41,800 nt of DNA from Escherichia phage vB_EcoD_Teewinot. A program made the translations under genes and the position numbers. The DNA is taken from sequence record NC_073053.1. One strand, 5' to 3'. The notes beneath the pieces were generated by a model, which was not told where the DNA came from, searched no databases, and saw nothing but the letters and a program-made list of their open reading frames with translations. This document shows positions 5,251-41,800 of this stretch, piece after piece. The first letter of the stretch is position 1, and every line of letters begins with the position of its first letter.

Positions 5251-5311
5251 CATTAGTGTGTCCTCGTTGTTGGTGTGCAACCAATATATGCAACCAATAC
5301 GAGGATTGCAA
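5251..5311 (-). promoter_or_regulatory. leftward promoter-RBS-ATG cassette (duplicate of the cassette at 38308-38369)
   Basis: On the minus strand: -35 TTGCAA (5311-5306), 17-bp spacer, -10 TATATT (5288-5283), two ATTGGTTGCA copies, GAGGA RBS (5265-5261), ATG (5253-5251). The 28-nt stretch TATATTGGTTGCACACCAACAA(C)GAGGAC is shared with the promoter of the gene at 38367. Confidence 0.45.
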
Positions 5312-7322: not shown

Positions 7323-7349
7323 GGGCGGGCTTATGCCCGCCTTTTTTTA
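7323..7349 (+). terminator. rho-independent terminator after the capsid gene
   Basis: GGGCGGGC-ttat-GCCCGCC followed by TTTTTTT. Confidence 0.7.
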
Positions 7350-7865: not shown

Positions 7866-8084
7866 ATGAATCCTGCATTACTCGCGGCTATTATCGCCGC
7901 AAATACTAAACGCCGACAGGAACCGGAACCACCGGTACCAGCGCCAGAACCGGAACCACCGGTACCAGCGCCAGAACCGGAACCACCGGTACCAGCGCCA
8001 GAACCGGAACCACCGGTACCAGCGCCAGAACCGGAACCACCGGAACCAGCGCCAGAACCGGAACCACCGGTACAGGAGGGCTAA
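7866..8084 (+). CDS. small proline/glutamate repeat protein
   Basis: ATG 7866 preceded by AGGGGG; 72 aa, N-terminal hydrophobic segment followed by about five copies of PEPEPPVPA encoded by a 27-bp tandem DNA repeat. Confidence 0.5.
   Translation: MNPALLAAIIAANTKRRQEPEPPVPAPEPEPPVPAPEPEPPVPAPEPEPPVPAPEPEPPEPAPEPEPPVQEG
7920..8076 (+). repeat. 27-bp tandem repeat (about 5.8 copies) inside a coding region
   Basis: Unit GAACCGGAACCACCGGTACCAGCGCCA repeated head-to-tail from 7920; four exact copies, a fifth with one substitution, and a partial sixth. Confidence 0.85.
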
Positions 8085-10246: not shown

Positions 10247-10276
10247 TTTGGTCGCTTAAATAGCGAGTGATAATAT

Positions 10277-10992: not shown

Positions 10993-11135
10993 TGAAGCGG
11001 GACAGGCGGGACGTCCCGTTTTGTCCCGCCTCTGTAAAACTGCATATCTACTCACTTCCACTGCATAAACTCAAAACGGGACAAGCGGGACGTCCCGCTT
11101 TGTCCCGCCCTGTAAATGTGCATACCTATGCAGTT
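10993..11135. repeat. pair of 30-bp GGGAC palindromes with TGCATA-containing spacers
   Basis: Two near-identical imperfect palindromes CGGGACAAGCGGGACGTCCCGCTTTGTCCCGCC around 11003-11040 and 11084-11120, each centred on GGGACGTCCC, separated by CTGTAAA(N)TGCATA-type repeats. Confidence 0.7.
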
Positions 11136-11139
11136 TTAT

Positions 11140-11313
11140 TGCATAAAGTAAGCGGGACAAAAAGCGGGACAAACAAGGGGCGGGACAAAGCGGGACAGCA
11201 CCCCGTCCCCGCCAGTGCTGCCGCGGTTTTCAGCCGATCGGGACAGCGGGACAGCACCCCAGTCTTTCAGACTAGACGGGGGTCAATGGCCCCCCTCGTC
11301 TGAGACTGAATAA
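11140..11313. repeat. 174-bp GCGGGACA-array element, copy A
   Basis: Four tandem GCGGGACA units spaced about one helical turn apart, a variable centre, two more GGGACAG units, then a long imperfect hairpin (AGACGGGGG...CCCCCCTCGTCT). Near-identical copy at 37996-38169. Confidence 0.8.
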
Positions 11314-11376: not shown

Positions 11377-14019
11377 ATGGCAGGTCAGGCAGCAGGCATC
11401 ACGCTAAAGGCTGATGTTGCACAAATCAGAACGGCAAATACTGTGCTGGACTCCTTCGCACAGAAATCCGAGAACACAGAAAACAAGGTTAAGAAATTAA
11501 ACGACACCCTCGGCAAATCCAAAAAGGTGACGAGTGACGCCGCGGGCGGAATGGAAAAGCTGGCAAACGAATCGCAGCGCGCCGCCGATGGCATGACGAA
11601 ACAGGAGCGACTCGCCAACAGGTTAGGCATGTCGACTAAAAACTTGGGCTTTGCCTCGCGTAACGCCGCATTCCAGTTACAGGATATCGCAGTTACGCTT
11701 GAGATGGGGATGCCGGTACACCGCGTTATGCTTCAGCAGTTACCGCAGCTAACTGGGGCGTTCGGTGGATTGGGTAACACTCTGCGTTATGTTGCTGGCT
11801 TCCTCGGTCCAGTTGGGATCGGCCTTGCTGCGGTAACGGCAACGTTAGGCGTGGGCGTAGCAATTACGTCCCGCGCAGAGAACCAGGTCGCAGCGCTTAA
11901 CAAGACGCTGGCGCTGTCAGGTAACATTTCCGGCCTAACGGCAAACCAGATCCTGGTGCTATCCGAGAACGCCGAGCGCATGGGCGGGTCGTTCCGCAAG
12001 ACGCGTGACACAATCCAGGCGCTGGCGGCGGCGGGTGTGAAAGCGGGGGCGGACTTCGGCCCGCTGGCGAAGGTTGTGAATGACTTCGCGAAGGCGTCTA
12101 ATCAGCCGATCCCTGACGTGGTTGAATCCATCTCAAAATTGTCGAACGACCCAGTGGGCGGACTGCGTGCGCTGGCGGATAAGTATCATGTCGTTACCGA
12201 GGCGCAGATCCAGCAGGTGCAATCGCTTGTAGATATGGGGCGTGAAACGGACGCGGTTGCTCTGGCTAACAAAACAGCCGCTGCGTCGTTCTCCAGCATG
12301 ACCGATGAGGTAAAGTCCAACATGGGTACGCTTGAGCGGTCGATGAACGTAGTTACATCGGCAGCTAAATCTATGTGGGATGCCATCCTGGATGTGGGCC
12401 GCGCGCAGTCCTCGAATGAGTCCGAGATGAAAGCGCGTGAGTCCTTGCAGCGCATGACCACGGCGTACTATGCCGAGATGAGGGCGGTAAACGCTGCCGG
12501 TGGGGTAATGACCGAAGCGCAGAAAGCGCGTATTAACATGCTTTACAGCGAACTGGTCGCCCAGGAAAAGGTAGTAGCGTCGCTCACCCTTCGCAACCGT
12601 GCCGAGCGAGACAGCGCCAGCGCCGCGGATGAAGCAGCAAAGGCGAACGAGGAGGCAAACCGCGCCGCCCGCGACCGCTCCGCGTTTGAGAAGGAGTACG
12701 CAACCAACGCGAAGCGGCGAGCCGACGAGATCGCCCGCCTAAATTTGCTGAATAAGCGCGGTGTTATTAACGAGAAAGAACTAGCCGAGGCGGTGAAGCA
12801 GGTCAACGAGCGTTACAAAGACCCCGCGCCGAAGAAAGCGGAGGCAGTTCGAGTCGATGCCGGGCTGAAAATGCTGGAAGTCGCGCGAAGCGAATTAGCC
12901 CAGCTTCGTGAGTCTGGAAAGCAGATCGAAGCCAACGCATCGACGCAGACCCGCACGCAACGCGCGCAAGCGTCCCTGAACAAGCTGATTGCCGATAATG
13001 AGCAGTTAATCACCGCGAGCAAGGAGCGCGCACTCACGGCAGCAGAAAAGCAGCAAACGGCGGCGTTCGAGGCGGTTAAATCGGTACGCGAGCAGATCGT
13101 CGAAGAAGCCAAATTGCTGGACGCGAAAGAGAAGCAGATCAAAGCACACGCCCAGGTCGATGCATTCATCAAGAACCAGAACGCCGAGCTAAAAGCCACC
13201 GCGGCGGGATATGCGCTTTCCACTCGCGAAGCGGCTAACCTGCGCGAAGAATTGCAGCTAATTGATCGCCTGAAGCGGGTGGGCGCTAACGATACCGATA
13301 TTGATCTGGCGGTGTCTAAGCTGCGCGAAGTGCAGGAAGCACAGACCGGTGCTAACGCCTCGCTATGGGATGGCTTCAGCCGCGGGCTTAAGGATAGTGT
13401 TGATGAAATGGGTAACGGCTATACGCAGATGACGTCACTCACAAAATTCACGTTCGGCGCTATGCAGGACACGATGAACGAGTTTTTCGAGACTGGCAAG
13501 CTGAACGCAAAAGATATGGTTAAGTCCATTCTGAGCGAATTAATAAAGCTGGCTACCTCGCAGGCGTTCAAGTCCATCGTTAGCGCTTTCGGCGGTGACG
13601 GCGGCAAAAACGGATTGTTCGGCGCTATTTTCTCCGGCCTCACTAAGAATGCGGACGGCGGAGCGTACGCAGGGGGCAACCTCGCGGCCTATTCGGGGCA
13701 AGTGGTAAGCCAGCCCACCTTTTTCAGTTATGGCGTCCAGGCGTTCGCTAAGGGCGCAGGATTGATGGGGGAGGCTGGCCCCGAGGCCATCATGCCGCTT
13801 AAGCGCGGGCCAGACGGTAAACTTGGCGTTGCCGCGGCAGGCGGTGTCGGGGGAATGATTGTAACGACCAACGTTAACATGGGGACCGGTAAGACGGATA
13901 CCAGTGTTAGCGGTCCAGACCCGCGCACCGCGCAGGCGTTCGGAAAGCAAATCACCGAGTCGGTCAAGGCCGAGATCGTGAAGGCGACGAAACCGGGTGG
14001 TGTACTTTACAAACGATGA
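11377..14019 (+). CDS. tail tape measure protein
   Basis: 880 aa, long helical A/Q/K/E-rich protein with glycine-rich C-terminal part, AAGGGGA RBS; located after the G/GT chaperone and before the tail tip genes. Confidence 0.85.
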   Translation: MAGQAAGITLKADVAQIRTANTVLDSFAQKSENTENKVKKLNDTLGKSKKVTSDAAGGMEKLANESQRAADGMTKQERLANRLGMSTKNLGFASRNAAFQLQDIAVTLEMGMPVHRVMLQQLPQLTGAFGGLGNTLRYVAGFLGPVGIGLAAVTATLGVGVAITSRAENQVAALNKTLALSGNISGLTANQILVLSENAERMGGSFRKTRDTIQALAAAGVKAGADFGPLAKVVNDFAKASNQPIPDVVESISKLSNDPVGGLRALADKYHVVTEAQIQQVQSLVDMGRETDAVALANKTAAASFSSMTDEVKSNMGTLERSMNVVTSAAKSMWDAILDVGRAQSSNESEMKARESLQRMTTAYYAEMRAVNAAGGVMTEAQKARINMLYSELVAQEKVVASLTLRNRAERDSASAADEAAKANEEANRAARDRSAFEKEYATNAKRRADEIARLNLLNKRGVINEKELAEAVKQVNERYKDPAPKKAEAVRVDAGLKMLEVARSELAQLRESGKQIEANASTQTRTQRAQASLNKLIADNEQLITASKERALTAAEKQQTAAFEAVKSVREQIVEEAKLLDAKEKQIKAHAQVDAFIKNQNAELKATAAGYALSTREAANLREELQLIDRLKRVGANDTDIDLAVSKLREVQEAQTGANASLWDGFSRGLKDSVDEMGNGYTQMTSLTKFTFGAMQDTMNEFFETGKLNAKDMVKSILSELIKLATSQAFKSIVSAFGGDGGKNGLFGAIFSGLTKNADGGAYAGGNLAAYSGQVVSQPTFFSYGVQAFAKGAGLMGEAGPEAIMPLKRGPDGKLGVAAAGGVGGMIVTTNVNMGTGKTDTSVSGPDPRTAQAFGKQITESVKAEIVKATKPGGVLYKR

Positions 14020-14028
14020 TAAAATGGC

Positions 14029-14054
14029 CCTCACTACAACGTGGGGGCTTTTTT
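14029..14054 (+). terminator. hairpin plus T-tract (attenuator-like) abutting the next start codon
   Basis: GGCCCTCAC-tacaac-GTGGGGGC (one mismatch) followed by TTTTTT, then ATG 14055 immediately; the only SD-like GGGGG is inside the stem. Confidence 0.35.
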
Positions 14055-14654
14055 ATGGCGCAAGGTACAATCACACTAACTAAGGGAAGTAAGACCATCA
14101 CAGGCGTGGGAACCGCGTTCTTGAGCGAGATCGGGAAGGTCCGCGTATTTACCCGCATCGACGGCAACGACTACACCGGAAAAATTGCGGCATTCAACTC
14201 TAACACCGTCATCACCCTGGCGGATAACTGGGCCGGACCGACAAAAGCCGGTGCAGCTTATGAGCTAATCGAAGCGCACGACCCGCGATCAAACGAATGG
14301 CCCTATTACTGGCACATGCAATTGCAAGGTGGCGGAGACGTGCAGTTGGCTTTCCGGTCCGAGGAATTGCAGTTTGGTAATGGCTACGGACAGAACATCG
14401 CGGACGGCCCGAACGCCGAAACGAAACAGTTCCCCGTGCAATTCGTCGGGCTGACTACGGACAAGTGGTGCAACCCTAAACTGGTTTACAACTTCCTTCG
14501 CGGGCACTTCGTCAAGCCGTTTGTCGTCACCGCGCCGGATGGCGAAACAGGTTTATTCGTGGTCGAGCGTTCGAGCTTGTCGTACACGGACAACGGACAC
14601 CTCACGGCAACCGTATCCGCCACCCTTAAGACTGCTATTGGATTCGTAAGATGA
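14055..14654 (+). CDS. minor tail protein (M position), fibre-like N-terminal domain
   Basis: 199 aa from ATG 14055 (MAQGTITLTKGSKTITGVGTAF...); the N-terminus is paralogous to that of the ORF at 21541. Confidence 0.5.
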   Translation: MAQGTITLTKGSKTITGVGTAFLSEIGKVRVFTRIDGNDYTGKIAAFNSNTVITLADNWAGPTKAGAAYELIEAHDPRSNEWPYYWHMQLQGGGDVQLAFRSEELQFGNGYGQNIADGPNAETKQFPVQFVGLTTDKWCNPKLVYNFLRGHFVKPFVVTAPDGETGLFVVERSSLSYTDNGHLTATVSATLKTAIGFVR

Positions 14655-19700: not shown

Positions 19701-20206
19701 TCGCTACACAGTTCGGTCAGCAGTCCGCCGCTATCGAGCAGAAGATGACGTCCTCGTTTAACCACTCTGGTGGTAGCGCCACGTATAGCCTTAAGGCTGG
19801 CGTGACATATAACGGGACTTATTATGATGCGGGTATGCAGCTTTCCGTTGTGACGTCTGGCAACGCGGTTAAATCGCGTATTGCGTTCAAGGCGGACCAG
19901 TTCTACATCATGCATCCGTCCAATGGGACGCTGTCGTCTGCGTTTATTGTGGACGGTGGCGCGGTGTATATCGACACGGCACGCATCAAGAACGCGTCCA
20001 TCAACTTCGCGCATATAACAGACACGCTGCAATCGAATAACTACGACGGCAGCACGCGCGGCTGGCGCTTAGGGAAAGATGGAACGTTTATCAACCTGGG
20101 CACCGGTAGCGGCGGCGGGATGAAACAGACGAACACAAGAATCAGCGTGAAGGACGGAAACGGCGTTCTCCGCGTGCAGATTGGTGAGCTTACTGGTAGC
20201 TGGTAG
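16787..20206 (+). CDS. central tail fibre / host specificity protein J-like
   Basis: 1139 aa, by far the largest ORF; follows the M/L/K/I-like genes in lambda order. C-terminal third is Q/A-rich helical then a probable receptor-binding region. Confidence 0.8.
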   Translation: MTIIYDVTGHKGGGGKQHTPQETPDSLHSLAKIRILLALGEGEFESITSASELRQRVYLDGTPIQNADLSENFPGARVEFRPGTQHQDVIHGFSAVESEQSVGVKLENGTPWVRQINDTSLDAVRIRIGIPALYTTEDNGDLVGGRIDYKIVVYTDNADPREFRFAAVGKTISLYERDHRIELPPNVNTGWRVEVHRITADSTSAKVVNDIRVQSITEIIDARLRYPLTALLFVEFDAKAFQNIPRVSIKCKGRKVLIPNNYDPINHTYSGDWDGTFKRAWTDNPAWHWYDICITERFGLGRRIKPQMLNRYALYQIAQRCDQLVSDGNGGREIRFKNDMYIQSQTDAWTVLKDLAAIFAGMTWWGNQMLNIVSDQPVAAVSHTITNASVIDGRFDYASGSQKTRYSTFAVAYGNPKNHYEDAIATGQRVELVRRHKINRLDITAIGCTRESEAQRRGHWALISNQLDQQVSFKVGMEGLFFIPGSVVAIADTNISGGFETRGGRLLSDPGTRTVLNTDSEITFRPGDKFLVRTDSGNVETREIASVNGNKVTLKTALDANPIPDQPFCVDGDDIQLQKFRITDLEYDDSTSTFSVRGIEYNDSKYDAVDNGARLDPGIFTQVPDGVMKGPESVTITPSQISSQGQLITNVDIVFPPVKDAVVYEIQWRRTSLQNMEIQWGNDWVNIPRTASNGAHIPNVFSGNYQARVRAIGMGEISSPWVSSAITPVEGRLGGLNAPIITNAISGLHQILWKWNHNNAATDISYTELEVRKTGETEWKFLTNVPYPGAEYAQTSLEFGIYQQLRARVADKIGNLSDWSAPFEGQVSDKVDEYMKGLDNEFLTSEDGKRFQEAINTIPQGIYEAMLTDAHQLFNARAEYKGIYAEISVAYNVAADAHKAVSQLETLIGTRLDDAEAAIHTLQTAQSTHEQAFAQYQQTVAAKFREQEAAIQQVQTATADVAGALAEYKTQVATQFGQQSAAIEQKMTSSFNHSGGSATYSLKAGVTYNGTYYDAGMQLSVVTSGNAVKSRIAFKADQFYIMHPSNGTLSSAFIVDGGAVYIDTARIKNASINFAHITDTLQSNNYDGSTRGWRLGKDGTFINLGTGSGGGMKQTNTRISVKDGNGVLRVQIGELTGSW

Positions 20207-20210
20207 TATA

Positions 20211-34159: not shown

Positions 34160-34190
34160 CTAAAAATAGGCCCGCAGATTAGCGGGCCGG
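34160..34190 (-). terminator. minus-strand terminator after the acidic protein gene
   Basis: On the minus strand GGCCCGC-taatct-GCGGGCC followed by TATTTTTAG. Confidence 0.5.
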
Positions 34191-35043: not shown

Positions 35044-35373
35044 ATGAATATCAAAGAAGCAATTGAAGTGTTATCTAATGCAATCCGCGGCGAAGCGGGT
35101 AAATCCTGGTATTACACAAATGCGGTGGATACTCTGTTATTTGAAGTGTCCAGATTATCGCGTGCTGAGAAGGAGCTTACCGCGAAGCTGGAATTGCTCA
35201 ACGGCACGGCAGCAAGCAAGCTGCAAAAGCACAATGAAGAAATGGAAGAATACAAAAAACAGGTTATCCGTTTGCGCGCCGAGGGCAAATCCTGGGCGAT
35301 GATTGCCGAGTTGACCGGAATTAATCAGAGCACAGTGCGCTCCTGGGTACGCAATAATAAAACTTCTAAGTAA
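35044..35373 (+). CDS. HTH DNA-binding regulator
   Basis: 109 aa; C-terminal GKSWAMIAELTGINQSTVRSWV is a typical helix-turn-helix; first gene of the rightward operon. Confidence 0.65.
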   Translation: MNIKEAIEVLSNAIRGEAGKSWYYTNAVDTLLFEVSRLSRAEKELTAKLELLNGTAASKLQKHNEEMEEYKKQVIRLRAEGKSWAMIAELTGINQSTVRSWVRNNKTSK

Positions 35374-35383
35374 GGCCACGGCA

Positions 35384-37648
35384 ATGAACTTAATTAAATT
35401 CGCTGTAACACGACCCGCTAAAAAAGGCGAAAAAGCCAGGGCGGAAAACTTCCAGATGACCACCGATGAGTTTTTCGAATTTATTAATGATGCGAAAGAA
35501 ATATCCTCGGTGCATATCAACAAGACGGAAGATAAAGCGGAGTATGCGCGCCGCAAGCGTAAGGCTGATGGTATTGTGGCTTATACCCGTGACGGCTTAC
35601 GCCGCAAGACCAGTGCCGTGGACCGCTCGATCCTGTTCTTCGATATCGACCGTACCGACACCCGCACCCTGCGCCGCTGCCGTAAGGCTTTCATCGACGC
35701 GGGGCTGGAGCACGTATTTCACACCACAACCGGCGACCGCCACCCGCTGAAAGGCGGCACGCGTTGCGCTCGATTCCTGGTACTCACGGACAAGCCTGTA
35801 CCGGCTGAAGACCTGGGCCGTGTCCAGTATGCGCTATTACACCAACTGGGTCTGTCAGATGTGGACTTCGACGATTGCACGAAAGACACAAACCGCCTGA
35901 TGTACCTGCCACACCAGCAGTCTGTCGTTAAGTGCCACTACGGCAAGCGCGCCCGCGTCCGTCGTCTGCTCCGCCTGGCTGACAAGCTGGGAGTCGAGAA
36001 AGAGGAAGTACGCCGCGAACTGACCCAGGGCGATGATGGTGTGGCGGACGGTATTCTGGATTGGTGCTTCCAGGCGGGATTCGAACCGCTGTCGTCTGGT
36101 CGTGGTTATGAAGTGCCATGCCCGAACGAACACCTGCACAGCGGCGAAGGGTCCACCGCTATCTTGGTTAAGGATGGCGAGATCCGTTTCAAGTGTATGC
36201 ACACCGGCAACGAGTGTTGCTCGGAGCTGAACAGACACCAGCACCTGGCGCTACGTCTTATCGGGATCCCGGACCACCTGAACGTCGAGCCACACAACAT
36301 GTCCCGTAAGCAAATCGCCGCCATCCTCCCCGGACTGGACGACGAGGAAGTGGAATCGTGCTATGAACATATCGTTGATGCGGTCGGAGACGGCGACGAG
36401 TACGGCGTGTGTACTGATGCAGACCTGGACAACGAGCCGGTCGCACTGTTCAGTAAGCACGACCCGATCATCGAAGGCCTGGTCAACTTCAAATCGACCT
36501 GGTATCTCGCCGGTGAGTCGAACATCGGTAAATCGTTCTACGTGCTGGGGCAAATGGGTGCGGTTGCCGCGGGGATTCCGTTCGGCGGTGCGAAGGTCGT
36601 CCAGTCCCATTGCTTCTATTTCGACGCGGAAGGTGGCGAAGCCTCCAACCAGCGTAAGGAAGCATTGCAGATCAAATACGAGCACGACCTCGACAAGCTG
36701 CACATTATCGATCTGCAATCACGCGGCTGGGATATCACCAGCAAATCCGGCTTGCGTGAAGTTATCAGCTTCATCAACCGCACCGCTAACGGCGAACCGG
36801 TTGGCCTGGTGGCGTTCGACTCACTCAACCAGACGGTTGCGCTGCGGTCCGCCGATGCTAAACCGTTCGACGAGAACAACGCCAGCGATATGGGTGAAGT
36901 GGTCAAAGCGCTGAAGGCCATCGCGGAAAATACAGGCGGCAGTGCTGGCGTCATCCACCACCCGGCGAAGGGTGCAAACGGCAGCAGATCCCCCCGCGGG
37001 TCCGGCGCGCTGCATGGTGCTGTAGATTCCGCGTTCTTCCTGGAGCAACCGGACGACAATCAGCCCGGACAACTTAACCTGTATCACGAGAAGGCACGTA
37101 ACGGCATCAAGCAAGCGCCGCGCGGCTTCGTCCTGCTCAAGTGCAAGGTTAAGGTGGATCTCCGCAAGTCCGAGGCGTTCGAGGCGCACCAGTCCACCAG
37201 CACCGGGCCAGACTTCGGCGACGTGGTTGCCGGATGGGACGTCAAGCCGATTGCCTCCACGCCACGCGACGAGACTCTCTACCTCGTACCGGTCGCCCTG
37301 GCACCGTTCGCTATAGAACAGGCGAAGGCGGCTGGCAAGGCCGCGGTTAAGGACGAGAATGCCGCAGGACCGCGCAACGAAAAAGAGAAAGTGCTTTATG
37401 CGGCACTGGAAAAACTGATGGAAGATAACCCGGACCATACCGGATTCAGCAAATCGGCAATTGTCCGCCAGGCGGGATTGGCAAAAGGTGGAACATCTAC
37501 GAAGGCAATAGACGATATGGTTGAGCGCGGAGTGTTAGGTTTTTATACCGATCCGCACACCGGGGCCATCTATGGGTCGTCGAATATAGTCATCAAAACG
37601 AATATACCCATCACGCTTTCTGCGACCGATGACGACCTGAAAGATTAA
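35384..37648 (+). CDS. primase-helicase (AEP-type primase domain plus P-loop ATPase)
   Basis: 754 aa; N-terminal SILFFDIDRTD (hhhDhD primase-polymerase motif) and DDCTKDTNRLMYLP, a Cys/His zinc-binding segment, then Walker A GESNIGKS. Confidence 0.7.
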   Translation: MNLIKFAVTRPAKKGEKARAENFQMTTDEFFEFINDAKEISSVHINKTEDKAEYARRKRKADGIVAYTRDGLRRKTSAVDRSILFFDIDRTDTRTLRRCRKAFIDAGLEHVFHTTTGDRHPLKGGTRCARFLVLTDKPVPAEDLGRVQYALLHQLGLSDVDFDDCTKDTNRLMYLPHQQSVVKCHYGKRARVRRLLRLADKLGVEKEEVRRELTQGDDGVADGILDWCFQAGFEPLSSGRGYEVPCPNEHLHSGEGSTAILVKDGEIRFKCMHTGNECCSELNRHQHLALRLIGIPDHLNVEPHNMSRKQIAAILPGLDDEEVESCYEHIVDAVGDGDEYGVCTDADLDNEPVALFSKHDPIIEGLVNFKSTWYLAGESNIGKSFYVLGQMGAVAAGIPFGGAKVVQSHCFYFDAEGGEASNQRKEALQIKYEHDLDKLHIIDLQSRGWDITSKSGLREVISFINRTANGEPVGLVAFDSLNQTVALRSADAKPFDENNASDMGEVVKALKAIAENTGGSAGVIHHPAKGANGSRSPRGSGALHGAVDSAFFLEQPDDNQPGQLNLYHEKARNGIKQAPRGFVLLKCKVKVDLRKSEAFEAHQSTSTGPDFGDVVAGWDVKPIASTPRDETLYLVPVALAPFAIEQAKAAGKAAVKDENAAGPRNEKEKVLYAALEKLMEDNPDHTGFSKSAIVRQAGLAKGGTSTKAIDDMVERGVLGFYTDPHTGAIYGSSNIVIKTNIPITLSATDDDLKD

Positions 37649-37960
37649 ATTTTGCGCGCATTGGGAATTCCCATATCGCTAAAGATTAAATTTTGCGCGC
37701 ATTGGTTGCCATTTTGGGAATTCCCATATCGCTAAAGATTAAATTTTGCGCGCATTGGTTGCCGATATGGGAATTCCCATATCGCTAAAGATTAAATTTT
37801 GCGCGCATTGGTTGCCATTTTGGGAATTCCCATATCGCTAAAGATTAAATTTTGCGCGTATTGGTTGCCATTTTGGGAATTCCCATATCGCTAAAGATTA
37901 AATTTTGCGCGTATTGGTTGCCATTTTGGGTGTTTTTAACTGGTCGTATTGGTTGCCGTG
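37640..37960. repeat. iteron array, about six tandem 53-bp repeats (candidate origin of replication)
   Basis: Unit AAAGATTAAATTTTGCGCGCATTGGTTGCCATTTTGGGAATTCCCATATCGCT at 37681, 37734, 37787, 37840, a 41-bp first copy at 37640 (12-bp deletion) and a degenerate sixth; each has the palindrome TGGGAATTCCCA, extended to GATATGGGAATTCCCATATC in the third copy. Starts in the last codons of the primase-helicase gene. Confidence 0.75.
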
Positions 37961-37995
37961 TAGGGTGATTATTATGAATAGTTATGCAATAAAAC

Positions 37996-38169
37996 TGCAT
38001 AAAGTAAGCGGGACAAAAAGCGGGACAAACAAGGGGCGGGACAAAGCGGGACAGCACCCCCGTCCCGCCCCGGATGGCGCGGCTTTCAGAGGAGCGGGAC
38101 AGCGGGACAGCACCCCAGTCTTTCAGACTAGACGGGGGTCAGTGGCCCCCCTCGTCTGAGACTGAATAA
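37996..38169. repeat. 174-bp GCGGGACA-array element, copy B
   Basis: Same length as copy A (11140-11313); identical over the first 60-odd bp and the last 70-odd bp except one A/G difference, with a diverged roughly 40-bp centre. Confidence 0.8.
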
Positions 38170-38307
38170 AATCCCAATACACGGCAGCATAGTGAAAATT
38201 GCGTCGAGGGTAGAACTCGGCAACCAATGCGGGTTGGATAATGGAGAGTGGGAAATGCAGCCACCGCGGATAGCGATCAACTTTTTCATGCGCATGATTA
38301 ATATTGG

Positions 38308-38336
38308 TTGCATTCGTGCCAGCACCCTGCTATATT
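38308..38336 (+). promoter_or_regulatory. sigma70-like promoter built from two ATTGGTTGCA copies
   Basis: TTGCAT (38308-38313, from motif copy 1), 17-bp spacer, TATATT (38331-38336), then motif copy 2 (38334-38343), GAGGA RBS and ATG 38367. Confidence 0.45.
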
Positions 38337-38366
38337 GGTTGCACACCAACAAGAGGACTGCACAAA

Positions 38367-38708
38367 ATGAAATTTCCAGTAACTATCACCGGCAACGACC
38401 ACGGCACTTACGAGAGTACCAAAATGAAAGCATTAATCTGGAATTACACAATGGCGATGGCAAAGCTGAACGAAGCGAAAGCGCTGAACGGCAACATCGA
38501 CCGCGCGGCACATATCGTAATACTGGCACAGCAGGCAATCATGTGCGCGCTCGACGGCATGGATGAACTGGCGAAGGCAATTCACGAATACGCGCAGGCA
38601 TTCTCCCGTGAGCGCCTGGCATATCGCTTCGGGATCGGCGAGACGGCAGTGACAAACGTCGCCCGGATTAAAGCCCAGCGCGAACTATTCGCCCAGCTTG
38701 CGAAATAA
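38367..38708 (+). CDS. hypothetical protein
   Basis: 113 aa from ATG 38367 (GAGGA RBS); the track start at 38304 lies inside the promoter. Confidence 0.55.
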   Translation: MKFPVTITGNDHGTYESTKMKALIWNYTMAMAKLNEAKALNGNIDRAAHIVILAQQAIMCALDGMDELAKAIHEYAQAFSRERLAYRFGIGETAVTNVARIKAQRELFAQLAK

Positions 38709-38717
38709 GGGGTCAAA

Positions 38718-38987
38718 ATGGGCCGTAGGCGAGCAAAACAGCTTTCGTGGCATATTCCCCTGCATTGCATACGAATATGGGCTCAGAATGCGACTGAGGG
38801 CGATTCTGTGTCCTGGAGCTATCGCGATGATGTGAAGCCGCTGACGCAGACTCGCTACTTGCACCAGTTCGCAGCGCAACACGATTTCAGGGTGCGGACT
38901 TCCTTGCGACCAATGGGAATACGTATTACATTACGCAAGAAGCCCGCCATTGAGCGGGTGGGCAAACACTGGAGACTGAGCAAATGA
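38718..38987 (+). CDS. hypothetical protein
   Basis: 89 aa, basic, AAGGGG RBS. Confidence 0.5.
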   Translation: MGRRRAKQLSWHIPLHCIRIWAQNATEGDSVSWSYRDDVKPLTQTRYLHQFAAQHDFRVRTSLRPMGIRITLRKKPAIERVGKHWRLSK

Positions 38988-39076
38988 CACCAATGCAAAG
39001 AGCGCTAATGGCGGGATTCTCGCAGAAGTTTATTTCGGTAGGCGACTATAAGACTGTTGAGGAGACTGAGCAATGA
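38984..39076 (+). CDS. small hypothetical protein (absent from the ORF track)
   Basis: 30 aa (MTPMQRALMAGFSQKFISVGDYKTVEETEQ); start overlaps the previous stop and its stop overlaps the next start, both in GGAGACTGAGCAA(A)TGA contexts. Confidence 0.3.
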   Translation: MTPMQRALMAGFSQKFISVGDYKTVEETEQ

Positions 39077-39318
39077 GATTACTATTCCGCCGCATACTGA
39101 CCTGGATTCCTAAGTCCGCTTGCACCACGCGGCAAGCGATCGGGTATTCCGCGCATCGAAGGGCACATTGCCGCAGTTCTTCGAAGTCCTCACACACGAT
39201 ATTGAGCGCGGCGATGTGTTGCGTGATATTCGCGACGGGCAGCTATGGATCGTGGAGCACCCCACCAGGTTGCGCATGTGGTGGCTATGGTATCGGCAAG
39301 TGGTCCATTTTCGATTAA
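39073..39318 (+). CDS. hypothetical protein (frame uncertain)
   Basis: 81 aa ORF with coupled ATG and GGAGA RBS. Composition is odd (Cys/Ser/Arg-rich); the overlapping frame at 39120-39332 reads more protein-like but has no ATG/GTG start and no RBS. Confidence 0.3.
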   Translation: MRLLFRRILTWIPKSACTTRQAIGYSAHRRAHCRSSSKSSHTILSAAMCCVIFATGSYGSWSTPPGCACGGYGIGKWSIFD

Positions 39319-39336
39319 ATACGCAAGCGTGATATA

Positions 39337-39371
39337 GTCCCAGTGAGCTAAAACTTACTGGGACTTTTTTA
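39337..39371 (+). terminator. terminator abutting the holin start codon
   Basis: AGTCCCAGT-12 nt loop-ACTGGGACT followed by TTTTTT, then ATG 39371 immediately. Confidence 0.55.
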
Positions 39372-39661
39372 TGGATAAGCTAAACGAGTGGTTATTCGCC
39401 CTTGCGTGTCTTGCTGGTGGCTTCGTGGGCGCACGCATTCACGGCGAGGCAACGAAAGGGCCGTTGAACTTCGTTTTATATGTCGTAGTTGGCTTCCTGT
39501 GCGCCATATTTGGTGCGCCAGCCATTGCCGAGTGGTCTGGTTTGTCTGGCGAGCGCACTGTCGCCGGTTTGGGCTTCGTAACTGCAATCTTCTGGATGCC
39601 AATAGCCGCCCGGATCAGGGAGACTATTGAGTCGTTCCGACTTCCGGGGGGCGCAAAATGA
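39371..39661 (+). CDS. holin (putative, three TM helices)
   Basis: 96 aa with three hydrophobic helices (WLFALACLAGGFVGA; LNFVLYVVVGFLCAIFGAPAI; VAGLGFVTAIFWMPIAA) and a charged C-terminus; two genes upstream of the endolysin. Confidence 0.55.
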   Translation: MDKLNEWLFALACLAGGFVGARIHGEATKGPLNFVLYVVVGFLCAIFGAPAIAEWSGLSGERTVAGLGFVTAIFWMPIAARIRETIESFRLPGGAK

Positions 39662-39903
39662 TTATCTCCGTCCTGTTGTTTGTTATCATAGGGGCTTCGT
39701 CCCTGTTTAACGTGTATGCGCCGTCCGTCCAGGATGGCATTTTAGGCCGGGTGTTATATCTGCTAACGGCGATGATCTGCGTTATCGGATTGTTGCAAAC
39801 AGGAGACGTATCTGACACCACCTGGACCGCGTTAATCTGGTTGTTTGCATTGCGCACGCTGCGTAATGCTGTTTTGAATGGGGTAAAACATGCGATTCAG
39901 TGA
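39658..39903 (+). CDS. second holin-like membrane protein (holin/antiholin partner?)
   Basis: 81 aa with two to three TM helices, GGGGGG RBS, overlapping start/stop codons with its neighbours. Confidence 0.5.
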   Translation: MIISVLLFVIIGASSLFNVYAPSVQDGILGRVLYLLTAMICVIGLLQTGDVSDTTWTALIWLFALRTLRNAVLNGVKHAIQ

Positions 39904-40381
39904 CAACGGTCTACGATTTACGGCAGCATGGGAGACTTTCAGCCCAGTGCCGTATTTCGCGACTAAGAAAGAGCAGGCCCGCGGCCTGTACACCTGGGGT
40001 TATGGTCATACCGGCACTAACCCGCCTCGAAGCATTACCCGCGCGGAAGCGCTGGAGCTACTCAAGCGCGATGTGGCGTATGCTGAGGACCGGGTGAACA
40101 AATACGCACATCCGAGCATTAACCAGGCGCAATTCGACGCGCTGGTGGACCTGGTGATCAATGCTGGTCCCGGTCCGATCGTACCGGACGACGTAGCCGG
40201 TGACTTCGATGATGCGGTGCGACTGGGTGACTGGGCGAAGGTCCGTGCTACTCTGCCGCAGTTCCGCAAGCAAGGTGGGGAGGTGCTTAAGGGTCTGGTC
40301 CGTCGAGCAATCGGCAGGCAAGCGCTATTCGATGGAAAGCAGTGGGACGTTGCCGAGAAAATCGGTCGTAACGCAGCATAA
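39890..40381 (+). CDS. endolysin, GH24 lysozyme type
   Basis: 163 aa; recalled P22-type lysozyme landmarks match: SDNGL near the N-terminus, catalytic E (WETF), YTWGYGHTG, INQAQFDALVDLVINAG, C-terminal RRAIGRQALF. Confidence 0.8.
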   Translation: MRFSDNGLRFTAAWETFSPVPYFATKKEQARGLYTWGYGHTGTNPPRSITRAEALELLKRDVAYAEDRVNKYAHPSINQAQFDALVDLVINAGPGPIVPDDVAGDFDDAVRLGDWAKVRATLPQFRKQGGEVLKGLVRRAIGRQALFDGKQWDVAEKIGRNAA

Positions 40382-40397
40382 TACGAGGTAACACAGT

Positions 40398-40565
40398 ATG
40401 CTAAAAAGTATTCTTGATCATAACGCCGACGCGCTCGCCGCGCTGGCTAAAACCGAAGACCCAGGCGCACGCGCCATTATCGCGGACACAATCAGTCATG
40501 CGGGTGTCTTTGATGCGAAGCTGCCGAGTCCGCCACCGCAGGAGGAATCTGGTCCTGCAGCGTAA
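40398..40565 (+). CDS. small hypothetical protein in the lysis cassette (absent from the ORF track)
   Basis: 55 aa (MLKSILDHNADALAALAKTEDPGARAIIADTISHAGVFDAKLPSPPPQEESGPAA) with GAGGTAA RBS, followed by a clean terminator. Confidence 0.45.
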   Translation: MLKSILDHNADALAALAKTEDPGARAIIADTISHAGVFDAKLPSPPPQEESGPAA

Positions 40566-40572
40566 ACAATCA

Positions 40573-40597
40573 AGCCCGGAATTATCCGGGCTTTTTA
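40573..40597 (+). terminator. rho-independent terminator
   Basis: AGCCCGGA-atta-TCCGGGCT followed by TTTTT. Confidence 0.65.
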
Positions 40598-40657
40598 TTG
40601 CTTGACTCGGGACCGTGGTATATTGTCCTCTGACCAATAACCAGGAAGTTAATTAAT

Positions 40658-41800
40658 ATGCACCCGCAAACTAAAATCACCGACGAGCAATTGATCGCCG
40701 AGTTGCAATCCGGCACTACCTCGAAAGATATTGCGAAGAAATACGGCCTTTCCCTCCGAAATGTCTACATGCGAAAAGCCCGCCTGTCGAAGAAAGGGAT
40801 TGGACACGGCAATGATGCCGTAATCCGTAAGCGCGTTGCCGATGGATTTGGCGTTAAGCGTGTATCCGCCCTGGTGCGCGGCAATGGCGAAGAGGTCATG
40901 TCGTGGGTTATCACTGAGCAGGACAAGGAGCGCCAGCTTGAGGCGATGCGCGCAGTGCTGGATGGCATGAACAGCGAAATCACACCGGCAGCACCAGTTA
41001 GCGCCCCGCCAGTACCGATCCAGGCGCTCGACTTGCTCAACCTGTACACCGTGTCAGACTTCCACCTGGGCATGTTGGCATGGGGCGAGGAGACTGGCGA
41101 AGACTGGGATATGGCGATCGCCGAAGACCTGTTCTACCGCTGGTTTGTCGAAGCCTTCGCACGCGCCCCGGACGCAGGCACTGCCGTAATTAATATCCTC
41201 GGTGATATGGCCCACTTTGATAGCCTCGATGCTGTCACTCCGGCAAGTGGTCACATACTGGACGCCGACACCCGCTACCAGAAACTGGTCCGATACATGA
41301 TTCGCATGGTGCGCAACGTCGTCGAACTGGCGCTGCAAAAACACCACAAAGTCAAACTGCTAATCGTCCAGGGAAATCATGACGAGTCGGGTATGATTTG
41401 GCTGGCTGAGATGTTCAATACTCTGTACGAGAACGAGCCGCGCGTCGATGTGGATACGTCCCCGGACGTCTACAAAATGGTGCAGCACGGTAAGACCACG
41501 CTATTCTTCCACCACGGGCACAAAGCGCGATTCGATGCTATCGAGCAGGTTATGATTTCTAAATTCAGACAGGCTTTCGGATCCAGTGAGTACAGCTACG
41601 CGCACGTAGGCCACTTGCACCACCAGAAGATTGTAGAATCCCGCAACATGATTGTTGAACAGCACCGGACGCTCGCAGCGAAAGACGCCTACGCCAGTCG
41701 TGGCGGTTGGATGTCCGGTCGCAGCGCAAACGTCATTACCTACAGCGCCAACTACGGCGAAGTAGCGCGCTTAACCATTAGCCCGGAAATGTTGAAGTAA
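40658..41800 (+). CDS. SbcD/Mre11-like metallophosphoesterase nuclease with N-terminal HTH
   Basis: 380 aa; N-terminal HTH-like TTSKDIAKKYGLSLRNVYMRKARL; phosphoesterase motifs VSDFHLG, ILGDMAHFD, VQGNHDE, HHGH, GHLHH. Complete ORF ending at the window edge. Confidence 0.6.
   Translation: MHPQTKITDEQLIAELQSGTTSKDIAKKYGLSLRNVYMRKARLSKKGIGHGNDAVIRKRVADGFGVKRVSALVRGNGEEVMSWVITEQDKERQLEAMRAVLDGMNSEITPAAPVSAPPVPIQALDLLNLYTVSDFHLGMLAWGEETGEDWDMAIAEDLFYRWFVEAFARAPDAGTAVINILGDMAHFDSLDAVTPASGHILDADTRYQKLVRYMIRMVRNVVELALQKHHKVKLLIVQGNHDESGMIWLAEMFNTLYENEPRVDVDTSPDVYKMVQHGKTTLFFHHGHKARFDAIEQVMISKFRQAFGSSEYSYAHVGHLHHQKIVESRNMIVEQHRTLAAKDAYASRGGWMSGRSANVITYSANYGEVARLTISPEMLK

Follow-up and report, generated by a model that had tools for sequence, protein, structure and literature searches.

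In Escherichia phage vB_EcoD_Teewinot (NC_073053.1) two genes, one for the holin and one for the first tail-tip protein, begin directly after a hairpin and T-run of the kind that ends transcription units, which raises the question of how polymerases and ribosomes gain access to these two genes. The original prediction for this DNA was that the hairpins couple partial termination to structure-gated initiation of translation, as a control on the dosage or timing of holin and tail-tip synthesis. We analyzed both sites within the window, the whole stretch of 41,800 nt, together with the corresponding regions of related phages. The answer that we favor, and on which our confidence is evenly divided, is that both elements would be true intrinsic terminators, that the stem would also occlude the SD on read-through RNA and that translation of the tail-tip gene would be coupled to that of the tape-measure gene.

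Genome context and start codons

Comparison of the holin-lysin region with phage records gave 205 matches at 60-95% identity, mostly to Escherichia Dhillonvirus, and these matches identify the window as a Dhillonvirus genome (HK578/SSL-2009a-like siphophages). A literature search found no promoter, terminator, transcriptome or reporter study of any Dhillonvirus. The holin protein is 100% identical to the holin of phage Dru_SM5, and the annotation of that phage, mapped onto the window, provided 49 usable gene starts. The genome is very compact, about 10% of it being intergenic. The structural and tail genes lie on the + strand from 131 to about 21200, with a clear promoter (TTGGTG-17-TATAAT with TG) at 32-60, and the replication genes occupy the minus strand between about 22300 and 34640. 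Further on, the + strand carries another block of genes (35044-41800), which encodes an HTH protein, the helicase-primase, small ORFs, the lysis cassette and an exonuclease. Within this block the primase operon occupies 35044-39318 on the + strand, and the lysis cassette is closed by a terminator at 40573, after which a promoter-like sequence, TGGTATATT, is found at 40616-40624.

The holin gene (39371-39661, + strand, ATG 39371-39373) encodes a protein of 96 aa that matches phrog_2359. It is followed by a second holin gene (39658-39903) and then by the endolysin gene (39890-40381). The M-D-K..E..W N-terminus of the first holin is conserved in the Kagunavirus homologues of 46% identity, and later start codons were rejected on the grounds of this N-terminal conservation. 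Upstream lies the ORF 39073-39318 (+ strand, TAA stop 39316-39318). Homology to most relatives starts only at about 39278, inside this ORF, which places a mosaic boundary there. Another ORF, 39120-39332 (TGA 39330), was discarded as a coupling partner of the holin gene, given that annotation and substitution pattern favor ORF 39073-39318.

The first tail-tip gene (14055-14654, + strand, ATG 14055-14057) encodes a minor tail protein that aligns over positions 1-199 of the 199 of phrog_9922 and has a lambda M-like domain at residues 86-192, where it matches PF05939. It follows the tape-measure gene (11377-14019, + strand; TGA stop 14017-14019, then TAA), the product of which matches PF06791 and PF09718. 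Both starts, 39371 and 14055, are also used by deposited annotations, and the phrog_9922 profile likewise begins at ATG 14055, which argues against a start at 14016. The latter, an in-frame ATG that overlaps the tape-measure stop (ATGA), was dropped as a tail-tip start; its frame is unconserved among relatives because the lengths of the loop (6 or 7 nt) and of the T-run (5 or 6) vary.

Terminator-like hairpins run into the holin and tail-tip start codons

The holin-proximal terminator hairpin, AGTCCCAGTGAG-CTAAAA-CTTACTGGGACT, occupies 39336-39365 on the + strand and has a 12-bp stem and a 6-nt loop. The tail-tip-proximal hairpin, GGCCCTCAC-TACAAC-GTGGGGGCT, occupies 14026-14049 on the same strand, with a 9-bp stem and a 6-nt loop. 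Each is supported by sequence, fold and conservation. A hairpin with a T-run leading directly into the ATG is present at both sites, as had been predicted; the coordinates given for the holin site were right and the second stem begins at 14026, 3 nt before the 14029 originally given. When the two regions were folded, the holin hairpin had an energy of -19.8 kcal/mol (z -7.7) and the tail-tip hairpin one of -16.0 kcal/mol (z -4.5), and in neither case was any of 200 shuffled sequences as stable. Both hairpins were also folded with 40-200 nt of upstream sequence and as nascent RNA with its 3' end at the T-run, and in all of these contexts their pair probabilities were 0.85-1.0.

Both elements have the features of intrinsic terminators, namely a GC-rich stem, a 6-nt loop and T6 directly after the stem, and both lie on the sense strand directly after the ends of ORFs. 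Each ranked second in its own terminator scan. The loose scan pattern matched 30 times versus 23 ± 5.3 in shuffled sequence and 36 times versus 25.3 ± 5.2, about 1.3-2 sd above the mean. As these counts are near the shuffle mean, the case rests on the strength and conservation of the hairpins and not on the count.

The 3' arms contain the only SD-like purines. At the holin site these are GGGA at 39360-39363 (+ strand), the sole match to the anti-SD in the -20 to -1 region of ATG 39371 and, at -3.9 kcal/mol, among the weakest of the genome. At the tail-tip site the element is GGGGG at 14043-14047 (+ strand), which pairs with the anti-SD at -8.4 kcal/mol and is again the sole match in -20 to -1, here of ATG 14055. 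This part of the prediction was therefore correct at both sites. The T6 run at 39365-39370 (+ strand) is at once the U-tract and the entire spacer between GGGA and ATG, and the T6 run at 14049-14054 (+ strand) likewise doubles as U-tract and SD-to-ATG spacer. The gaps are 52 nt between ORF 39073-39318 and the holin ORF and 35 nt between the tape-measure and tail-tip ORFs, and hence the 3' arm gives the only SD-like purines and the U-run becomes the SD-to-AUG spacer. At both sites the SD is thus inside a stable helix, with the AUG outside the core stem.

The sites differ in the distance from the upstream stop codon to the stem, which is 7 nt for the tape-measure stop and 17 nt for the stop of ORF 39073-39318. 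An upstream stop within about 15 nt, from which a ribosome would cover the 5' arm, is found at the tail-tip site and not at the holin site. The holin hairpin is also the first + strand terminator past the primase operon, and the terminator scan of the + strand found no other between that operon and the holin gene. Its T-run touches the holin ATG with no space for a promoter between the two, so that a conventional promoter for the lysis cassette would not fit downstream of the terminator.

Contrast with other starts and terminators of the genome

The genome has about 19 sense-strand terminators. At least six of the others, those at 7323, 10277 and 20210 on the + strand and at 34188, 31171 and 25383 on the minus strand, show a T-run, a few bases, a separate clean SD (AGGAG, GGAG, GAGG etc.) and an ATG 13-19 nt after the T-run. 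A spacing of zero between T-run and ATG occurs in the genome only at the holin and tail-tip sites. Opening of the -18 to +12 region required 25.6 kcal/mol at one of these two sites (rank 1 of the 49 starts) and 19.5 kcal/mol at the other (rank 3), versus a median of about 8 kcal/mol. Rank 2 belongs to the second holin start; in that gene a GGGGGG is located in a structure into which the end of the first holin ORF folds. Given such extreme opening energies, it is physically reasonable that the stem gates translation.

Conservation among Dhillonvirus relatives

Dhillonvirus loci were drawn from IMG/VR, metagenomes and GenBank, and about 30 of them retain the hairpin of the holin site and, directly before the ATG, a run of T6-T7 or AT6. 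Variation at the holin site is located in the loop and the region upstream of the hairpin. The stem is invariant in the relatives except for phage welsh, in which one unpaired C-to-A change leaves a fold of -12.7 kcal/mol. In the lineage that shares 71% holin identity the hairpin contains a bulge, one U-A pair has become U.G, and both the loop and the N-terminal coding sequence are different, with T6 still standing directly before the ATG.

For the tail-tip site 16 sequences (12 distinct) were compared. The hairpins of all relatives fold at -13.5 to -17.3 kcal/mol with loops that vary in both sequence and length. Changes in the 5' arm are solely C/U, opposite G, and in one relative a G-to-A change in the 3' arm converts U.G to U-A, keeping the pairing and changing GGGGG to GAGGG. 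The T-run has degraded to ATTTTCT in L021 and to ATCTTCT in L022, two of the 16 sequences, and both retain the stem and a distance of 7-8 nt between the G-run and the ATG. Across the alignment 98% of stem cells are paired, with four one-sided compatible changes. Two-sided covariation was not seen in the tail-tip stem among these 16 sequences, and the score was not significant, as 386 of 500 shuffles reached or exceeded it. With no covariation and with an invariant holin stem, the sequences may have been conserved for another reason. We conclude from the alignments that the arrangement is kept across the genus with changes compatible with pairing, selection for pairing being statistically unproven.

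A Kagunavirus holin leader buries a strong SD

Scans of IMG/VR and metagenomes for more divergent relatives returned two clades only, Dhillonvirus at 71-98% identity and Kagunavirus at 44-50%, with no intermediates. The leader of the Kagunavirus holin gene, which encodes the homologue of 46% identity, consists of AUCCUCCAG, a 22-nt loop, CUGGAGGAU, UCAUC and a UUG start, and folds at -14.7 kcal/mol. The arms of this hairpin, ATCCUCCAG and CUGGAGGAU, bury the strong consensus GGAGGA at the same place, with no T-run, and the hairpin is conserved in about 40 IMG/VR loci. Judged by its sequence, it is a pure SD-sequestering translational element and not a terminator. Control of holin translation by a hairpin thus looks like a theme common to Dhillonvirus and Kagunavirus, and the Kagunavirus hairpin supports the translational half of the original prediction. 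In the Kagunavirus genome K1ind2 the tape-measure gene shares its last base (16992) with the start of the following gene, the usual coupled layout.

How the two elements may work

In the reading that we favor, both terminators would punctuate the + strand transcription units, the one at 39336 by ending the primase (early-middle) operon just before the lysis cassette and the one at 14026 from its place after the tape-measure gene. Any read-through RNA carrying the whole hairpin would present a closed ribosome-binding site.

From their spacing the two sites are probably not working alike. At the tail-tip junction a ribosome that finishes the tape-measure ORF would sit over part of the 5' arm. 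With that arm covered, termination would decrease, the GGGGG would be exposed and translation of the tail-tip gene would be coupled to that of the tape-measure gene. Termination at lambda tR2 in vivo is almost fully repressed when stop codon and hairpin are 8-9 bp apart and is maximal beyond 30 bp, and at spacings like 17 nt the outcome depends on sequence, with termination efficiencies of 0.12 to 0.8 (PMC4824070). Given these values and the 7-nt stop spacing, the tape-measure ribosome should suppress termination and uncover the GGGGG. Structure-gated initiation, as originally proposed for both genes, is reasonable in view of the opening energies and the Kagunavirus hairpin; at the tail-tip gene the stem probably acts in translational coupling rather than as a brake.

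The holin gene presents a different case, as its upstream stop is 17 nt away and no ribosome-driven opening of the stem is expected there. The stem would stay closed, with slow synthesis from the few read-through RNAs, perhaps aided by 30S/S1 at the U-run, and the lysis proteins would be held low during activity of the upstream operon. The 39336 element would thereby insulate the lysis genes twice, since most polymerases would stop and the read-through RNAs would have a closed RBS. Should the stem both terminate and close the RBS, the lysis cassette would be shielded from the replication operon in two ways by a stretch of only about 35 nt, a compact lysis-timing device in a virulent phage without a known late regulator. 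At the tape-measure junction the corresponding consequence would be that output of tail-tip protein is tied to tape-measure translation. For the annotation of the 150 or more sequenced Dhillonviruses, and for phage engineering, the elements would mark the ends of transcription units, with the caution that the holin and first tail-tip genes have no independent RBS.

Alternative explanations

Two features that the original prediction had not considered, a U-run that could be an S1-type enhancer and an extended -10-like element 5' of each hairpin, bear on other readings of the two sites. The first belongs to a reading in which the hairpins are plain terminators, their adjacency to the ATG is incidental compaction and ribosomes are recruited by the U-run (through S1) and the AUG, so that the stem is neutral or even helpful. 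We doubt this explanation. It fits a very compact genome with about 10% intergenic DNA, and the GGGA of the holin site is a poor SD in any case. It also has a precedent in E. coli rnd, the U-rich leader of which is reported to bind 30S subunits and to enhance translation (Zhang and Deutscher 1992). By analogy, the U-run of the phage elements may be an S1-type translational enhancer that partly replaces the SD. Since U-rich leaders can stimulate translation, the sign of the net translational effect is uncertain and could be neutral or positive. However, a stem that ends at -7 overlaps the 30S footprint, and the GGGGG or GAGGG of the tail-tip site is a good SD that stays at a constant 7-8 nt from the ATG despite decay of the T-run. 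Moreover, the Kagunavirus leader, in which GGAGGA is buried without a T-run, is hard to read except as translational control.

The second feature suggests an embedded promoter of the type known from T4 gene e. Against the reading that we favor, a strong terminator together with an RBS closed by -20 kcal/mol may give too little holin and endolysin, and a possible shortfall of these proteins argues for another source of translatable mRNA. In the embedded-promoter reading the extended -10-like sequence at the foot of each hairpin would be a sigma-70 promoter with no need for a -35 element. At the holin site the putative element is TGATATAGT (39330-39338, + strand), at the 5' foot of the hairpin, with a predicted start at about 39345, inside the 5' arm. 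At the tail-tip site it is TGATAAAAT (14017-14025, + strand), partly made of the TGA-TAA stops, with a predicted start at about 14032-14033, at the end of the 5' arm. RNAs that start at about 39345 or 14033 would lack the 5' arm and hence would neither terminate nor have a closed SD, whereas RNAs initiated upstream would be both terminated and translationally silent. We consider this reading unlikely, and the evidence is mixed. Both 9-mers have five of six hexamer matches and are in the right place, with no -35 element, and TGATATAGT is unchanged in every relative, the lineage of 71% holin identity among them. No other location for a promoter is available to the lysis cassette. Leaders beginning at the predicted starts, 7 nt past the hexamers, lack structure: their MFE is about -4.7 kcal/mol, and 163-196 of 200 shuffles are at least as stable.

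The same pattern recurs in the genome. TGnTAnnnT ends at the foot of four of the 19 sense terminators (10268, 14017, 20201 and 39330) versus about 0.07 expected, a nominal P of 1e-5 to 1e-6 for a test that was chosen after the data had been inspected. The two further elements are TGATAATAT at 10268 and TGGTAGTAT at 20201. Each has a TTGGTS hexamer 17 nt upstream (at 10248 and 20181), the layout of the promoter at 32-60. Among relatives the free "n" and the spacer of the 10268 site vary while TG and TAAnAT are kept, and the -35-like hexamer reads TTGGTC except in a single relative with TTGGGC, so that TTGG is kept throughout. Against this, the holin and tail-tip sites have no usable -35 element, and two of the four motifs are composed of stop codons (TGA-TAA and TGG-TAG). 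It is normal for terminator stems to be preceded by A/T-rich "A-tracts" that pair with the U-run, and the true significance of the motif is therefore far below the nominal P. Matches resembling TGnTATAAT show no excess over the window as a whole (23 versus 20.7 expected), and no TGnTAnnnT was found at terminator feet in the Kagunavirus control genome K1ind2. A promoter upstream of a terminator would also be exposed to occlusion by incoming polymerases, and elsewhere in the genome the order is the opposite, terminator and then promoter (21-60 and 40573-40624).

A wider form of the embedded-promoter reading is that the four sites (10268, 14017, 20201 and 39330) are Dhillonvirus promoter-terminator "reset" modules, each with a sigma-70 extended -10 promoter fused to the 5' foot of the hairpin. 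Polymerases from upstream would be stopped and their read-through RNAs closed, whereas RNAs from the embedded starts would have short leaders open to translation. We think this scheme quite unlikely. If it were true, the holin gene would have the early/late switch of T4 gene e in a form driven by the host polymerase.

Finally, the hairpins might be part of regulated attenuators or of leaders resembling riboswitches, with an antiterminator, leader peptide or ligand choosing between termination and read-through. This reading has in its favor a position directly upstream of the holin gene, the timing of which matters; it was dismissed as very improbable because no Rfam family reached gathering score anywhere in the window and no alternative fold was found: the hairpin pair probability is at least 0.85 in all contexts with no competing structure, the upstream segments that compete best for the arms pair weakly with them (-7.8 to -12.4 kcal/mol) and lie over 90 nt away, and just 17 nt (holin) and 7 nt (tail-tip) of untranslated RNA precede the stems.

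Comparison with known systems

The two elements, which we read as terminators that also close the RBS, resemble the Rho-independent terminators of phage late operons, such as those that follow the major capsid and major tail genes, in having a GC-rich stem, a short loop and a U-run in sense orientation immediately past the end of an ORF. The genome itself provides textbook cases (7323 and 10277), and in distant relatives, too, a terminator follows the major tail gene. They differ in that at the holin and tail-tip sites the U-run abuts the start codon and the terminator constitutes the whole ribosome-binding region.

In phage lambda the "sdi" stem-loop at the translation start of the holin gene S influences initiation and hence the timing of lysis. 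It chooses between the S107 and S105 start codons, and the terminator tR' is a separate element well upstream. The present holin gene, in contrast, has a single start and no dual-start motif. The E. coli rnd leader reportedly contains, close before the start codon, a stem like that of a terminator and then U8, and the U-run is said to be needed for translation. However, that is the stimulatory 5' leader of a monocistronic mRNA, whereas the phage elements lie between ORFs and have their SD-like purines in the stem. The Kagunavirus leader precedes a homologous holin gene at the same position and also has its SD in a 3' arm that pairs with an anti-SD-like 5' arm; it differs in its 22-nt loop, its GGAGGA and UUG start and its lack of a U-run.

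A parallel to a lysis gene closed on read-in RNA is phage T4, where hairpins sequester the RBS of gene e (lysozyme), soc, 49 and I-TevI and where lysozyme synthesis from read-in RNAs with a buried SD is 100-fold lower (PMC3014915). Common to both phages is a hairpin that hides the SD of a lysis gene on RNAs read in from an earlier unit. The T4 hairpin, however, is not a terminator and is relieved by mapped late promoters inside its 5' strand, whereas the Dhillonvirus stem would also terminate and its internal promoter is a suspicion from sequence. Compared with the measured interference of ribosomes with terminators (PMC4824070), the 7-nt stop spacing of the tail-tip site falls within the nearly fully repressed range, whereas the 17-nt spacing of the holin site falls in the sequence-dependent range. 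The arrangement that prompted this analysis is real and conserved. Each of its components is a known mechanism, and the finding leaves current concepts unchanged; the full overlap of terminator, SD-bearing stem and spacer is a neat compact variant of them.

Promoter-like sequences at terminators

Four of the 19 terminators carry an extended -10-like 9-mer, TGnTAnnnT, the 3' end of which falls exactly at the 5' foot of the + strand hairpin (10268-10276, 14017-14025, 20201-20209 and 39330-39338). The nominal probability of this placement is about 1e-5 in a test that was picked post hoc. At two of the four feet TTGGTS is also present, 17 nt upstream. These 9-mers may be embedded promoters; alternatively, they may be A-tracts combined with stop codons.

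Three other places have the opposite order, a hairpin and T-run followed by a promoter-like sequence. At 21-60 the latter is TGTTATAAT (52-60), ahead of the small terminase gene; at 40573-40624 it is TGGTATATT (40616-40624), ahead of the exonuclease gene. The third lies on the minus strand (34913-34837) and has TTGACA-18-TATCAT as its second element. The order at all three is terminator first and promoter-like sequence second.

At the junction of the tape-measure and tail-tip genes an invariant ATG (14016-14018) overlaps the tape-measure stop codon as ATGA. Here this ATG shares the reading frame of the tail-tip gene, but it is out of frame in relatives whose loop is 7 nt long or whose T-run is T5. 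Ribosome restart at 14016 would result in translation through the hairpin.

Repeated motifs

The motif GCAACCAAT/ATTGGTTGC is present in 17 exact copies in the window, examples being those at 5277, 5290, 21516, 23509, 25393, 27745, 34844, 37701-37948, 38220, 38303 and 38334. When up to one mismatch was allowed we found 29 copies versus 11.5 expected, a strong excess given that none of 100 shuffles reached 29. The copies are concentrated between genes and in promoter regions, and the motif probably serves a phage DNA-binding protein as its operator or iteron. Directly after the helicase-primase gene a 53-bp unit is repeated in tandem (37661-37930; 5.1 copies, 96% identity). Every unit contains ATTGGTTGC plus a GGGAATTCCC palindrome, and the array is a candidate for an origin or a regulatory element. 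A further motif, GCGGGACA, occurs 16 times versus 1.8 expected, with most occurrences in two clusters (8 and 6 copies) at 10997-11253 and 38008-38109, one ahead of the tape-measure gene and the other beyond the 53-bp array.

Other genes and database records

The gene at 35044-35373, the first of the + strand early operon, encodes a small helix-turn-helix (HTH) protein of 109 residues deposited as 'resolvase/transposase'. Both Sigma70_r4_2, at 29.2 bits against a cut-off of 25.7, and HTH_23 match this protein, a candidate phage transcription regulator. Within the small ORF at 7866-8080, a 27-bp unit is repeated in tandem (5.7 copies, 98% identity) and encodes (EPEPPVPAP)n; the counterpart of this gene in Dru_SM5 is far shorter.

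Two GenBank records, MG065648.1 ('Campylobacter phage A144') and OQ221563.1 ('Acinetobacter phage NJ01'), are nearly identical to Dhillonviruses of E. coli, with 96.5% identity in the tail-tip protein and 87.8% in DNA, which suggests host mislabelling or contamination in these records.

Holin genes and the Kagunavirus leader

A mosaic boundary lies at about 39278, upstream of which the window sequence lacks homology to most relatives. One conserved block runs from the final 40 nt of the upstream ORF through the intergenic region and the hairpin to the holin gene. The second holin gene begins at ATG 39658, and its GGGGGG SD is buried in a -30.8 kcal/mol structure (region 39600-39660) formed by the 3' end of the first holin ORF. 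Opening this start costs 19.9 kcal/mol, which ranks second among the 49 gene starts and suggests translational coupling of the two holin genes.

In the Kagunavirus holin leader (phage K1ind2, locus L034, 1426-1500; about 40 loci among L053-L092) the SD is sequestered by a hairpin, AUCCUCCAG/CUGGAGGAU, whose 22-nt loop is conserved in sequence, and the start codon is UUG. A small AGGAUAAUUCCU hairpin lies immediately upstream, and the upstream AGGAU might instead pair with the AUCCU arm.
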